Positions 172-51,091 of a stretch of DNA of 64,000 nucleotides are shown here, in pieces; within the stretch, counting starts at the first letter, position 1; every line of letters begins with the position of its first letter. This DNA is from Dehalococcoidia bacterium. Lineage in GTDB: Bacteria; Chloroflexota; Dehalococcoidia; Plut-88900. The notes beneath the pieces were generated by a model that was given only the letters and a program-made list of their open reading frames with translations, was not told the origin of the DNA and made no database searches. The stretch covers positions 1 to 64,000 of the forward strand of contig CBDBLV010000001.1 of assembly GCA_965207225.1 (NCBI GenBank), given 5' to 3'. A program made the position numbers and the translations under genes.

Positions 172-317
172 GAACCCTCACCCCCTTGATCCCCCTCTCC
201 CCCTCGAGGGACTCGGGGCAGGCTCTTAGGGCCCTTAAGGGATAGGGGGAAGAAAAAACAAAGGCAAGCGCCTGCGCCATGGCGCAGGCGCTTGCCTCTA
301 GTTTGGTACTGGGGGGG
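172..317 (+). repeat. Composite palindromic repeat family A (GAACCCTCACCCCCTTGRTCCCCCTCTCCC...GGGAGAGGGG..GAGGC-hairpin-GCCTCTAGTTYRGTACTGGGG)
   Basis: Related copies at ~2141-2260, 2351-2470, 2613-2670 (partial), 11890-12030, 36712-36832, 38190-38333, 38985-39130/40400-40440 and 54941-55062. Confidence 0.85.
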
Positions 318-344
318 AAGGGAGGAGATGGGGGTGTTCAGTTG

Positions 345-955
345 TGGGGTTTGGGTATTCATTTTGTTCTGTCTGTTGGGGTTTGGGTCGGCGATGGAAG
401 GTCCGGGACTCGGATGCAGGACCTCGATGGCACCTACGCCGACGCTGGTGGCATCGGCGGCTGTCCTGCCTTTCCCTTCACGCATGCCTTGGGAGACTTG
501 CCGCTGTCGAGGGCGTCTCTGCGTGGGGACATCCGTCCACCGCATCAACGCTCGACCGCTGTACGGGACGGCATATCGGCTCGATTACCGCCGTGGGCGG
601 ATGGAGCCGCATAAGGGCGCTAAGGCCCTGCATAACGAGTCAGAAGACTCGCGGAATTCCTCGACGAGGGTAAAGTCGGCGAGGCGTATACGCCCGGGTA
701 AGGGGCGTCGTATCGGCAAGGGCGTCGTTATAGAGAGGCCTGCTGCCGCATAGAGTCGATGGACCATCCATCGCCTGGAAGTTAGGGAAGGGACACGGGA
801 CCCGGGGGATGAGGAGATAACGCCTCCGGCTTGAGCCTCGGGCCTGCGCTAGGGCCGTTGGGATGGGCTGGGGGGTTGAGTCCTCGGTGTCGGGTCTCGG
901 GGGCTTCCCTGGGTTTTTGGTTCCTCCTTGTGTCACGGAATATTAGTTCGAACTG
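345..955 (-). ncRNA. Candidate large structured ncRNA, copy 1 (family unrecognised)
   Basis: Homologous to 38413-38960 in the opposite orientation; long-range closing stem 390-404/761-775; hairpins conserved in position; indels between the copies break every reading frame. Confidence 0.65.
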
Positions 956-961
956 CGAAAC

Positions 962-989
962 AGTTTAGCACGGTTGTAATAGGAGTCAA
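962..989 (-). promoter_or_regulatory. sigma70-type promoter for ncRNA copy 1
   Basis: Minus strand TTGACT-16 nt-TAAACT, with TGn extension, directly upstream of the conserved element. Confidence 0.6.
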
Positions 990-37735: not shown

Positions 37736-38122
37736 ATGACAATCACATCAGCCGACCCCACCCCCATCTTCGCCGACGCGCTCCAAATGCAGGAAGCCGC
37801 CCTCCGGCGCATGGCTGCCGGAGACATACGTGATGCCTCCGACAAAGCCTGGTGCGCCGCCAAGCGCGCCACCGATGCCCTCATCCTAGCCCGCACTGGT
37901 CAATTACCCCCCAAGTCCCCCGACACCACCCGCTCCCTCCTCAGGCTTGCTGAGGACAATGCCGAATTACGCGGACTACTGGGAGACTACACCACAAGGC
38001 GTGACGTTCTCCACGGAGACTGCTTCTACACTGGCCTCTGTGAGCCCGCAGACGCAATTGAACGACTCATCCGGGAAACAGCGGACTTCATCCAAGACGC
38101 CCAAACCCTCGCCCACGCTTAA
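37736..38122 (+). CDS. PaREP1/HEPN-like helical protein
   Basis: GDIRDASDKAWCAA...LHGDCFY motif. Confidence 0.65.
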   Translation: MTITSADPTPIFADALQMQEAALRRMAAGDIRDASDKAWCAAKRATDALILARTGQLPPKSPDTTRSLLRLAEDNAELRGLLGDYTTRRDVLHGDCFYTGLCEPADAIERLIRETADFIQDAQTLAHA

Positions 38123-38377
38123 CCCCCAACTCGTCATTCCGGCCCCCGGGCCGGCTGAAAGTGCGCCTCTGGCGTGAATCCACCCCCTTCCCCCAGTACC
38201 GAACTAGAGGCCGACGTGGGTGTAGCGCACCCACGTCGGCCTCTGTTCTTCTCTTCCCCTCTCCCTTATAGGCCCTAAGAGCCTGCCCCGAGTCCCTCGA
38301 GGGGGAGAGGGGGATCAAGGGGGTGAGGGTTCCCCTATGGGGTCGAGGGGCATCCCCCCAAAGCCGCACATTTGCTC

Positions 38378-38406
38378 TTGACACACCTGTCCGACCGTAC
38401 TATCAT
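38378..38406 (+). promoter_or_regulatory. sigma70-type promoter for ncRNA copy 2
   Basis: TTGACA-17 nt-TATCAT. Confidence 0.75.
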
Positions 38407-38412
38407 GTTCTG

Positions 38413-38960
38413 CGTTCGGTCGAATACAAACTCACGTCATCAAAGGAGGAACCAAAAACCTAGGGAAGCCCACCCGACCCCACGGGTCCCGTGCCCCTTC
38501 CCCATCCATCCAGGCGATGGAAGGTCCATCTACTCTACGCGGTACACCCCTTTCCAGGGGCCTCTACCGAATCGGTGCTCCCTATCTTGGGACGCCTATG
38601 TCGCTGGCAATGGCTTGCCGGCGAAATTCTAACGGCCCGGCGTTACCGGGATTAGGGCCTCAGAGCCCCTACGCGGCTCCACTGCCGTCACCGTCCGCGG
38701 ACTCCGTTCCGCCCATGACGGTATCGAGCCGAATGCTGTCCCGCTCAGCGGTCGAGCGCTGATACGGAGAACAGAAGTCCCCGCGCAGAGACACCCTCGA
38801 CAACGGCAAGTCTCCCAAGGCATGCGTGAAGGGAAAGGCAGGACAACCGCCGATGCCACCAGCGTCGGCGTAGGTGCCATCGAGGTCCTGCATCCGAGTC
38901 CCGGACCTTCCATCGCCGACCCAAAACCCAACAGGCAGAACAAAATGCAAACCCAAACCC
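38413..38960 (+). ncRNA. Candidate large structured ncRNA, copy 2 (family unrecognised)
   Basis: Perfect 15-bp closing stem 38513-38527/38903-38917; many internal hairpins; homology and covariation with copy 1. Confidence 0.65.
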
Positions 38961-39130
38961 CACAACACAACATCCCCTCCCTTCCCCCCAGTACTGAACT
39001 AGAGGCAGAGGTCGGCGCTGTTCTTCTCTCCCCCTCTCCCTTCCCCCCAGTACCAAACTAGAGGCAAGCGCCTGCGCCATGGCGCAGGCGCTTGCCTCTG
39101 TTTTTTCTTCCCCCTCTCCCTCAGGGCCAT

Positions 39131-40399
39131 TGTATAGACCGGGGACATAGGTTACACATGTTCGGAGACATAGGTTACACCATTAGGCATAGCGATTCTG
39201 TAAGAGGAGGGTTTCTATGCCATGGAAGGTTGGAACGGTCATGTCTCAACGGGAAGAGTTTGTGGTCCTGGCCCAGTCCGAGGGTGTGAACATGAGTGAG
39301 CTGTGTCTGCGCAGCGGGATCAGCCGTAAGACCGGCTACAAGTGGCTGAGACGATACCTGGAAGGGGGTAAGGGGAGTCTGGAAGACCTTTCCAAGTGTC
39401 CCCATCACTCGCCGAACCGCACCAGCGCCGATATGGAGCAACTGGTAATAGACCTTCGAAGGGAGTTCCCCACCAAGGGGGGTCATGTGCTGGCCAAGAT
39501 GCTCAAGGACAGAGGGTACGGCGGTGTACCGGCCAAGAGCACCGTCACAGCCATCCTCAGTCGACATGGACTTATAGAGCCGGCCCAGAGCCTCAAGCAC
39601 AAGCCCTACCGCCGCTTTGAGCACCCCCGGCCCAACGACCTTTGGCAGATGGACTTCAAGGGACATATACCCATGTCCAGTGGTGGAAGATGTCACCCTC
39701 TGACGATCCTCGATGATCACTCCAGGTTCTCCCTGGCTGTAAGGGCTTGCCCAGATGAGAAGACTCCCACGGTCCGTGGCCACCTCACCTCTGTATTCCG
39801 CCGTTACGGCATGCCCGTCACTATGCTGGTAGACAACGGCGCCCCCTGGGGCCACGACCTCTACCATCCCTTCACGCCCTTGACCGTCTGGTTGCTGCAA
39901 CTGGGAGTCAGGGTGATCCACAGCAGACCCCACCACCCCCAGACTCTCGGCAAGCTTGAACGCTTCCACAAGTCCCTCAAGAGCGAACTGCTCCAGGGAA
40001 GCATCTACACAGACCTGCACCACTGCCAGGGCAGCTTCGACACCTGGAGAGACTTCTACAACCTCCAGCGTCCTCACCATGCCCTGGACCTCAATACCCC
40101 CTCCAGCCGATACACCCCCAGCCCCCGGCCCTTCCCCGAGGTCCTGCCTGCCATCGAGTACGACACCAATGACCAGGTGCGCAAGGTCGACGTCAACGGC
40201 CGCATATGGTTCAAGGGCAGAACCTTTAAGGTGGGGAAAGCCTTCCGAAGAAAGTGTGTCGCCCTTAGACCCGGGTCCAAAGACGGCACGTGGAAAGTCT
40301 TCTTCTCCGTACAACCCATTGCTACCATAGATCTAAGTAAGTAGGAAATGTGTTACCTATCTCCCCGAACAACTGTTACCCTTCTCCCCGGTCTATACA
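39131..40399 (+). mobile_element. IS481-family insertion sequence
   Basis: TGT...ACA ends; IR TGTATAGACCGGGGA/TCCCCGGTCTATACA; subterminal GACATAGGTTACAC repeats. Confidence 0.92.
39217..40344 (+). CDS. IS481-family transposase
   Basis: MPWK..., GISRKTGYKW HTH, LWQMDFKG, ILDDHSRF, DNG, PQTLGKLERFH. Confidence 0.95.
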   Translation: MPWKVGTVMSQREEFVVLAQSEGVNMSELCLRSGISRKTGYKWLRRYLEGGKGSLEDLSKCPHHSPNRTSADMEQLVIDLRREFPTKGGHVLAKMLKDRGYGGVPAKSTVTAILSRHGLIEPAQSLKHKPYRRFEHPRPNDLWQMDFKGHIPMSSGGRCHPLTILDDHSRFSLAVRACPDEKTPTVRGHLTSVFRRYGMPVTMLVDNGAPWGHDLYHPFTPLTVWLLQLGVRVIHSRPHHPQTLGKLERFHKSLKSELLQGSIYTDLHHCQGSFDTWRDFYNLQRPHHALDLNTPSSRYTPSPRPFPEVLPAIEYDTNDQVRKVDVNGRIWFKGRTFKVGKAFRRKCVALRPGSKDGTWKVFFSVQPIATIDLSK

Positions 40400-40454
40400 A
40401 TGGCCCTGAGGGAGAGGGGGATCAAGGGGGTGAGGGTTCCCCCCCGCACCAGGC

Positions 40455-40525: not shown

Positions 40526-40654
40526 CCCCCGACCCCGAATCTTGACACTAAAATGCCTCTAATGTACACTTCGCGCCGGTTTGCGCCCTCCTCCCGAAGC
40601 CATTGGAGGATTCCATTAACGTCGGTTGTCGGGGATGGGCGGGCGTGAAAGCTC

Positions 40655-51014: not shown

Positions 51015-51091
51015 GCCCCTATCGTCTAGCGGCCTAGGACACCGCCCTTTCAAGGCGGAGATCACGGGTTCGAATCCCGTTGGGGGCACCA
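51015..51091 (+). tRNA. tRNA-Glu (TTC)
   Basis: Cloverleaf GCCCCTA/TGGGGGC, anticodon arm CCGCC-CTTTCAA-GGCGG, TTCGAAT T-loop, encoded CCA. Confidence 0.97.

Follow-up and report, generated by a model that had tools for sequence, protein, structure and literature searches.

A genus-restricted family of modular, promoter-preceded intergenic cassettes in Dehalococcoidia

The two loci in the window

The window analyzed here, the 64,000 nucleotides (nt) at positions 1-64,000 of contig CBDBLV010000001.1 (assembly GCA_965207225.1, a Dehalococcoidia bacterium), contains two homologous elements, copy 1 on the minus strand at about 250-989 and copy 2 on the plus strand at 38378-39110. They belong to a family of non-coding intergenic cassettes that is modular, dispersed, high in copy number and restricted to one genus. 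An initial annotation of the same DNA had taken them for two copies of a large structured RNA gene comparable to OLE, ROOL or GOLLD, each preceded by a promoter and lying in opposite orientation. All the features named in that annotation were found at both loci, among them the 85-nt insert in the first hairpin (P1) of copy 1, the 15-bp long-range stem (P2), the A/C-rich tail and the near-identical 3' part; each unit runs further than had been noted, to an intrinsic terminator (Table 1). The picture of a two-copy RNA gene was not upheld, as two is the number of copies in the window only, and a search of the genome brought the number to about 49; the repeat is modular, has at least 15 interchangeable interiors and does not extend beyond one genus.

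Both copies follow a common plan, with a promoter, about 30 nt, an invariant leader (AAGGAGGAACCAAAAACC), P1, P2 closed around an interior, and the tail. Aligned over 761 columns they have a mean column identity of 81%, unevenly spread along the unit: 31 of 59 compared positions are identical in the promoter region, 53 of 61 in the leader and P1 (with 85 gap columns for the hairpin inserted in copy 1), 14 of 15 in the 5' arm of P2, 86 of 157 in the 5' half of the interior, 186 of 201 in the 3' part of the interior, and 62 of 69 in the 3' arm of P2 together with the tail. The interior of copy 1 is of sequence type B and that of copy 2 of type C, and the two agree only over their last 204 nt, at 92% identity. 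The middle hairpins had been thought to change sequence while keeping their place; since the B and C interiors agree over so short a stretch, much of this apparent drift is module replacement between subfamilies, and largely not slow compensatory change. Minimum-energy folds reproduced P1, the long stem and the middle hairpins, with the CCCGG/CCGGG hairpin of copy 2 in a different register from that annotated.

The copy 2 promoter is the sole promoter-like site in 38100-39250, for which shuffled sequences average 0.3, and promoters of its class precede 30 of 82 family copies; the class of the copy 1 promoter precedes 11 of 82 (unless another number is given, statistics for the main family refer to 82 copies from nine genomes, and those for interiors and arms to 89 copies). 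The terminator module that closes copy 1 matches in sequence the module after copy 2, where a degenerate copy of the module also lies at about 38983-39040, between tail and terminator. The description of both loci as free of open reading frames (ORFs) was loose, in that antisense ORFs of 153 and 114 amino acids are present in copies 1 and 2, respectively; neither matches a Pfam family, and other members of the repeat family do not retain them.

Table 1. Features of the two element copies, with positions in the window
Feature	Position	Strand	Detail
Copy 2 promoter, TTGACA-17-TATCAT	38378-38406	+	11 of 12 consensus matches
Copy 2 leader, AAGGAGGAACCAAAAACC	38443-38460	+	Shine-Dalgarno-like, without start codon
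Copy 2 P1 hairpin, short form	38462-38503	+	GGGAAG/CTTCCC around GACCC-CAC-GGGTC
Copy 2 P2 5' arm, GGCGATGGAAGGTCC	38513-38527	+	
Copy 2 interior cassette, subfamily C	38528-38902	+	multi-hairpin domain
Copy 2 P2 3' arm, GGACCTTCCATCGCC	38903-38917	+	
Copy 2 tail	38918-38982	+	A/C-rich, G-poor, unpaired in fold
Copy 2 intrinsic terminator module	39045-39110	+	closes unit; 19-pair stem 39059-39100, then TTTTTTCTT
Copy 1 promoter, TTGACT-16-TAAACT	962-989	-	read from sequence and alignment
Copy 1 leader, AAGGAGGAACCAAAAACC	912-929	-	
Copy 1 P1 hairpin, long form	784-910	-	85-nt inserted hairpin; 85 gap columns in copy 2
Copy 1 P2 5' arm, GGCGATGGATGGTCC	761-775	-	one U-U mismatch with partner arm
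Copy 1 interior cassette, subfamily B	405-760	-	
Copy 1 P2 3' arm	390-404	-	
Copy 1 tail	325-389	-	A/C-rich
Copy 1 intrinsic terminator module	250-305	-	closes unit; perfect hairpin 261-298, minus-strand T-run

Family size, anatomy and distribution

When copy 2 was compared by BLAST with its own genome (4.03 Mb in 5 contigs, 92.3% complete; referred to below as the source genome), 95 matches were obtained. Profile searches with leader and tail paired into 38 full units; 7 more, forming a variant family, have P2 arms in common with these and a different promoter and leader, and 4 were recovered through their interiors, giving a total of about 49 units, each 0.5-0.75 kb long. A strict promoter (TTGAC[AT]-N16-18-TAnnnT) stands before 65 of the 82 main-family copies, and in these 65 the end of the -10 box lies 29-36 nt from the leader. 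The AAGGAGG of the leader is a perfect 7-nt match to the ribosome-binding site type of the downstream genes (GGAGG-type), and ATG, GTG or TTG occurs 4-16 nt past it in 0 of 82 copies. From leader to arm the distance ranges from 68 to 243 nt among copies because hairpin modules have been inserted at P1. The 65-nt tail has the composition A 0.40, C 0.39, G 0.13 and T 0.08 over the 82 copies, and a terminator motif lies within 200 nt of it in 14 of them, both window copies included. Conserved sequence continues outside the arms of P2 for about 100-250 nt on the 5' side and 65 nt on the 3' side.

Between the arms, the interior is about 200-540 nt long, and the 89 interiors fall into 15 sequence types, with 33, 8, 8, 7, 7, 7, 4 and 3 members, five types of 2, and two singletons. 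Other pairs of types have segments in common different from that of B and C, such that the interiors are mosaics, and modules also occur in tandem, with spacings of 111 and 162 nt.

Many copies were found by BLAST in all eight other species of the genus; three further genera of its family, and 29 further families of its class, gave none. A search for an exact leader 26-mer in the genomes of 185,579 species gave 91 stretches; among the matches listed (80 of 91), every record is titled as a Dehalococcoidia bacterium metagenome-assembled genome (MAG), and these come from 8 assemblies. A covariance model of the most conserved part, a two-hairpin module, matched the source genome and all five congeners sampled and, under stricter filters, none of 145 other genomes of the class. 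The leader 26-mer had no exact match in a metagenome contig collection, where seven matches to a 19-mer of the arm were put down to chance, the two-hairpin module there being unconvincing (best E 0.051). The family is thus confined to one genus. Full-text searches of a limited literature collection gave no description of such an element for Chloroflexi, Dehalococcoidia or SAR202.

Coding potential, structure and covariation

A search of the whole window with Rfam 15 at gathering thresholds returned nothing but a tRNA at 51015-51088. With permissive settings (E up to 10), both element loci gave matches only in the flanking terminator and palindrome repeats or far below threshold, the best within an element being sX9, at 14.4 bits against a threshold of 44. 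Loci of subfamilies A and H likewise had no match, in a run that detected a group II intron at an unrelated reverse-transcriptase locus. The claim that the loci represent no known RNA family therefore held up against the Rfam covariance models, including those for OLE, ROOL, GOLLD, raiA, 6S RNA, RNase P, transfer-messenger RNA, signal recognition particle RNA and group II introns. Descent from a group II intron was set aside in particular, as no domain V match was obtained in the element loci tested, whereas a genuine intron of the same genome was detected.

That the family consists of genes or pseudogenes for a small or disordered protein, on either strand, is very improbable. The antisense ORFs of copies 1 and 2 would fit this explanation, as would the variant family, in which AAGGAG is followed by ATG and a frame of 206-246 codons is open in 7 of 7 copies. 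In the main family, however, no frame on either strand is free of stops in more than 3 of 37 copies, interiors within one subfamily measure 277-281 nt and differ by 1-2 nt, so the insertions and deletions do not come in threes, variable positions are spread without codon periodicity (counts of 33/23/28 and 41/50/52 over the codon phases), none of the four ORFs tested has a Pfam match, and the leader motif is followed by a start codon in 0 of 82 copies. Protein coding was rejected for the main family on the basis of the stops, the non-triplet indels, the lack of Pfam matches and the start-less leader, and the initial view of the loci as non-coding stands.

The seven copies of the variant family lie at C5:1004780, C5:1736820, C3:167150, C3:255630, C5:1189710, C5:1330540 and C2:179230. 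They have the P2 arms and the two-hairpin module in common with the main family, and AAGGAG is followed by ATG in 6 of 7. Their frame stays open across a compensated frameshift in all seven, compared with 2.3-4.0% of dinucleotide shuffles, and their substitutions are without codon periodicity and their products without a Pfam match. The open frame is an odd feature of this variant family.

The proposal that the loci are structured beyond what their composition would give was confirmed. The sense strand of copy 2 folds at -223.7 kcal/mol, compared with -185.0 +/- 6.05 kcal/mol for dinucleotide shuffles (z -6.40; 0 of 100 as good), and its antisense strand reaches a z score of -1.23 (12 of 100 shuffles as good); for the sense strand of copy 1 the z score is -4.26 (0 of 20 shuffles as good). 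P2 is 15-20 bp long across the family and occurs in two forms that are three compensatory pairs apart, and among 89 copies the two arms are of one type in 83, with type 1 in 61 of these and type 2 in 22. Within interior types, changes on both sides were seen at 4 of 73 predicted pairs for type A and at 7 of 89 for types B plus C.

Covariation was best tested on the two-hairpin module of types A, H and I, which is represented by 40 distinct sequences. In this module 94.5% of cells are paired, compared with 38-50% when partners are slid, and 8 of 26 pairs have changed on both sides, as many as 21 of 500 shuffles attained; two-sided changes affect 44 cells, a figure that 0 of 500 shuffles attained. 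The covariation score of 0.152 versus 0.082, likewise reached by 0 of 500 shuffles, bears out the stem covariation expected at the outset. The two loops of the module, UCGGAG and CUCCGA, are complementary over 6 nt and both invariant, and a loop-loop contact is therefore no more than a possibility.

Genomic context and downstream genes

Orientation of neighboring genes was scored with a simple ORF caller and a filter on third-position GC. The downstream neighbor is co-directional with the element in 37 of 43 source-genome copies (two-sided binomial p 1.6e-6), the upstream neighbor shares the element's strand in 19 of 43, and only 3 of the 43 have convergent genes on either side. In other MAGs the downstream gene is co-directional in 37 of 41 cases, which are partly at orthologous sites and hence non-independent. 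Among 18 downstream ORFs scanned, 16 have Pfam families, and 15 of these are unrelated housekeeping or metabolic genes, including LeuRS, NusA, KatG, peptide deformylase, MoaA, RibF and PrpD, as well as a CoA-transferase, amidohydrolases and radical SAM enzymes; the last of the 16 encodes the transposase of the IS481-like element next to copy 2. A riboswitch or other gene-specific leader was rejected because the downstream genes are not of one functional class. At nusA and moaA a second promoter-like site, the gene's own, follows directly after the tail, with no terminator between.

Persistence, interior exchange and turnover

Four genes at which the source genome carries an element were picked for this reason and compared across five congeners, and 13 of the 20 orthologous sites were filled, in the same place and orientation (leuS 4 of 5, katG 4 of 5, nusA 3 of 5, moaA 2 of 5). 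The copy 2 site is filled in three species, namely the source genome and two congeners, and empty in two congeners, one of which has an unrelated 155-bp spacer there. Compared with the closest species, identity at third codon positions is 0.875-0.897. For the leuS element it is 0.92-1.00 per 50 nt, against 0.875 at third codon positions, and at katG and moaA the interior has been replaced (about 0.4 identity), with ends, spacer and gene kept. A tree built from 29 interiors of type A groups the copies of distant species by genome, and in it those of the source genome interleave with copies from two other assemblies. Taken together, the conservation of sites, the replacement of interiors, the tree and the identity comparisons indicate long-lived sites, exchange between copies through their conserved ends, and occasional gain and loss.

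Synteny with congeners was also seen to break at the edges of elements or within a few tens of nt of them, at the leuS and moaA loci, and element copies may have served as recombination breakpoints in genome rearrangement.

Proposed function and alternative explanations

The explanation preferred here, held with about equal measures of confidence and doubt, is that the element is a transcribed intergenic cassette, spread by recombination, that acts in cis. The promoter of each unit would drive a compact RNA whose sense start would lie about 7 nt after the -10 box, with the Shine-Dalgarno-like, start-less leader single-stranded about 25 nt into the transcript. On the model of the STAB-SD motif, 30S subunits bound to the leader might shield the 5' end from RNase J, P2 would close the interior domain and may be an RNase III site, and the C-rich tail could let Rho enter or could serve as an unstructured spacer; the source genome encodes all three proteins, Rho, RNase J and RNase III. 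A Rho utilization site is an unfolded, C-rich and G-poor run of roughly 60-80 nt, and the tail has this composition (C 0.39 and G 0.13 in its 65 nt) and forms no pairs in the predicted fold; it could end the unit where the terminator module is missing. The unit would end at an intrinsic terminator module or continue, head-to-tail, toward the next gene, with the cassette tuning or insulating the transcription that enters it. Spread and homogenization would have occurred mainly through recombination between the conserved ends.

Several findings weigh against this explanation. The roles suggested for leader, P2 and tail are drawn from analogy with other systems, and among the 22 sequencing runs listed for this sequence none is of RNA. 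Stems were defined without G-U pairs, and the variants at them are symmetric, with G-U at 106 pair positions and A-C at 112. Antisense consensus folds are equal or better (-106.6 versus -95.8 and -111.7 versus -103.6 kcal/mol), and by minimum energy 83 of 89 copies fold better as antisense, an effect of the G/U-rich antisense and C-rich sense composition. The difference in z scores between strands shows how few competing folds the C/A-rich sense strand has, and is not proof of selection on RNA. Within subfamilies, few pairs covary (4 of 73 and 7 of 89). What holds of the claim of selection on RNA structure is that the elements are structured and their stems covary; pair-level tests come out alike for both strands, leaving RNA and DNA unseparated. 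Because these tests favor neither strand, it is the conserved promoters, the terminators and the orientation of genes that point to transcription and its direction. Presence/absence polymorphism at the copy 2 site, the partial clustering of copies by genome and the restriction to one genus would each also fit a selfish repeat without host function. Moreover, the ortholog of copy 2 in one congener is 79% identical compared with 91% for its flank, and therefore the conservation at leuS may reflect gene conversion and not selection.

The alternative closest to the idea of the initial annotation, which we regard as unlikely though a serious contender, is that the family is an expression scaffold for large trans-acting non-coding RNAs. 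It would make, and perhaps excise, structured RNAs of 200-500 nt and at least 15 kinds whose action lies elsewhere, be it as ribozymes, as protein sponges or as guides. It would account for the 14 of 82 copies, copies 1 and 2 included, that are closed units, having a terminator motif no more than 200 nt past the tail, for same-type interiors that are 90-95% alike between species, for the well-defined sense-strand fold, and for hairpin stems that covary around invariant loops complementary over 6 nt (UCGGAG/CUCCGA). The 15-20-bp closing stem, which resembles the processing stems of rRNA precursors, would also suit it, given that RNase III is encoded. Dedicated RNA genes would not, however, be expected to have fourteen near-identical copies of one interior type in one genome, nor tandem duplication of modules and swaps of interiors at fixed sites; the strong orientation bias toward the downstream gene, the absence of the family outside one genus and the lack of any partner gene linked to the copies also argue against this view. 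CsrA was found in 0 of 9 genomes of the genus, which counts against it as well and rules out a CsrA sponge. Distinctly improbable, in our estimate, is that the family forms a natural RNA scaffold of promoter, ribosome-binding leader akin to a 5' cap, processing stem and tail that displays at least 15 swappable structured RNAs of 200-500 nt, moved by recombination among about fifty sockets, some of them new large RNAs or ribozymes released by cleavage at the long stem; the analysis gave no pointer to ribozyme activity.

It is likewise unlikely, in our judgment, that the elements are selfish, non-autonomous mobile DNA of the kind of MITEs (miniature transposable elements with inverted repeats), whose arms and hairpins would act as DNA, either as sites for a transposase or recombinase or as single-strand hairpins, with the promoter incidental and the orientation reflecting the purging of harmful insertions. 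High copy number in one genus, presence and absence between species with an empty 155-bp site, and synteny that breaks at element edges are what such DNA would leave behind, and it would also explain arm sequences that are extremely conserved and change together, a structural signal alike on both strands, and copies that partly cluster by genome; active insertion sequences (IS) are present in the genome, including the IS481-like copy beside copy 2. Yet the inverted repeats are internal, with conserved sequence extending about 100-250 nt (5') and 65 nt (3') beyond the arms, and a comparison of filled and empty sites at copy 2 and moaA gave no legible target-site duplication, the intergenic DNA there being wholly different or synteny broken. 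In a scan of the source genome that allowed up to three mismatches, the arm motif gave 73 matches, confined to element copies except for five lone three-mismatch matches, and none flanks a transposase gene. Neither a Y1 transposase nor TnpB was found in this 92%-complete genome. The conserved promoter, leader spacing and start-less Shine-Dalgarno motif would be unneeded by an element acting as DNA only, and only 3 of 43 copies lie between convergent genes, where, in the passages on pneumococcal repeats in PMC3049150, such repeats and IS are over-represented.

Several particular classes of mobile or invertible DNA were also rejected. For a classical MITE, the arms would be at the ends of the unit and not internal, and the arm motif never flanks a transposase. 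A derivative of IS200/IS605 (a palindrome-associated transposable element, or PATE) or a TnpB guide RNA was discounted after no match to PF01797 or PF07282 was obtained in the 92.3%-complete genome. An inverton is contradicted by 0 minus-strand interiors among 89 copies and by a promoter that lies outside the repeats.

Should the RNA be made, it would be driven by some fifty strong promoters in a genome of 4 Mb and would form a major part of the transcriptome of an uncultured lineage. The family could then be a promoter-leader module that is portable, a group of insulators, or a store of large RNAs as yet unknown. In four sequencing runs that consist of contigs, these break and pile up at the repeat modules; repeats of this kind break short-read assemblies and will be miscalled as ORFs.

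Relation to known systems

BOX, Correia and ERIC elements are short dispersed structured repeats that alter the expression of neighboring genes, and, the promoters at Correia ends aside, these elements are not known to carry a complete transcription unit of their own. Correia elements are about 100-150 bp in length. Judged by analogy, BOX and Correia would be the nearest known things to the present family in their way of working, and the element has no sequence relation to either.

BOX of Streptococcus pneumoniae (boxA-boxBn-boxC) is presented in the relevant passages of PMC3049150 as a multi-copy, modular, intergenic repeat with paired end modules, a variable number of self-folding internal modules and extensive predicted RNA structure, and is thought to affect the genes with which it is co-transcribed. 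The Dehalococcoidia family likewise has paired conserved end modules and a variable number of independently folding internal modules. In the same passages, BOX is much shorter, is given no promoter, leader or tail, and is over-represented between convergent genes (PMC3049150). The present element, in contrast, is 0.5-0.75 kb long, has a near-consensus promoter, and faces the next gene in 37 of 43 cases, with 3 of 43 at convergent sites.

Correia elements of Neisseria are similar in having inverted repeats around a core and in being present or absent between strains, according to the part of PMC2649163 that concerns them, where their promoter activity is said to alter the expression of neighboring genes and their transcribed form to be a target of RNase III. 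Cleavage of the transcribed inverted repeats by RNase III is reported in the corresponding sections of both PMC2649163 and PMC3049150, and the latter describes the elements as bounded by 26-bp terminal inverted repeats. The repeats of Correia are thus terminal and its promoters are made at the element ends, whereas the repeats of the present element are internal, its promoter lies about 130-300 nt upstream of them, and they enclose an exchangeable interior of 200-500 nt.

A different comparison, suggested by size, is with OLE, ROOL, GOLLD and raiA RNAs. These are about 500-800 nt long, with many helices radiating from junctions and a function that is not readable from sequence, and are single- or low-copy genes with one conserved core, present in many genera. 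The element resembles them in length and in the number of its helices, and differs in having no Rfam match, at least 15 interiors, about 49 copies per genome and a range of one genus.

For the leader, the closest parallel is the STAB-SD of cry3A in Bacillus thuringiensis, at which, in the passages of PMC4113751 devoted to it, binding of the 30S subunit blocks the 5'-3' exonuclease RNase J1. As in that mRNA (PMC4113751), the element has a Shine-Dalgarno-like sequence near the predicted 5' end that would not start translation (a start codon at initiation distance is found in 0 of 82 copies), and RNase J is encoded in the source genome. The motif and the enzyme are what is known here, in an unrelated organism, and stabilization would follow by analogy.

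Compared with the short dispersed repeats, the new family is five times larger and combines a complete near-consensus promoter with a ribosome-binding motif that lacks a start codon. Interiors are exchanged as cassettes at a fixed site and between fixed ends, and housekeeping genes, leuS, nusA, def and katG among them, have the element on their promoter side.

Neighboring repeats and other elements

The intrinsic terminators of the two units are members of a family of their own, found in the window at 38190-38260, 39045-39110 and 250-310, in which the flanks are conserved (CCCCAGTAC..CTAGAGGC on the 5' side of the stem and GCCTCTGTT..CTTC on the 3' side) and the stem sequence differs between copies. 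A loose pattern finds 105 of them in the genome, and they occur both before and after element copies. After the terminator module comes a GC-rich palindromic repeat, CCCTCTCCC...GGGAGAGGGGGATCAAGGGGGTGAGGG, at 38262-38335, 170-250 and 40400-40440 of the window; its 3' half has 128 matches in the genome, and the repeat stands no more than 260 nt upstream of the element in 25 of 82 copies.

Into the palindromic repeat that follows copy 2 is inserted an IS481-like IS (39125-40405, with inverted ends at 39125-39142 and 40388-40405), whose transposase at 39217-40344 matches the Pfam families rve, HTH_32 and LZ_Tnp_IS481. It is missing at the copy 2 site in the five congeners compared, two of which hold many copies of elements about 82% identical elsewhere. 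Four reverse-transcriptase genes were noted in the source genome (C2:158087, C5:1548409, C5:1671488 and C5:1553608), and no link between these and the element was seen; two of them are 586-codon frames with equal Pfam scores, and one of the two lies inside the Rfam-recognized group II intron.

A short hairpin repeat, GTCATTCC..CGCGAGGAATC..GGGG, recurs in intergenic DNA, in the flanks of many element copies, in the 3' flanks of the H family and at the "empty" site of a congener. In this genus a limited number of recurring modules seems to make up the intergenic DNA. At 40540-40575 of the window, a short way downstream of the block that holds copy 2, lies a near-consensus promoter-like site, TTGACACTAAAATGCCTCTAATGTACACT, which is found at the same position in all five congeners compared.

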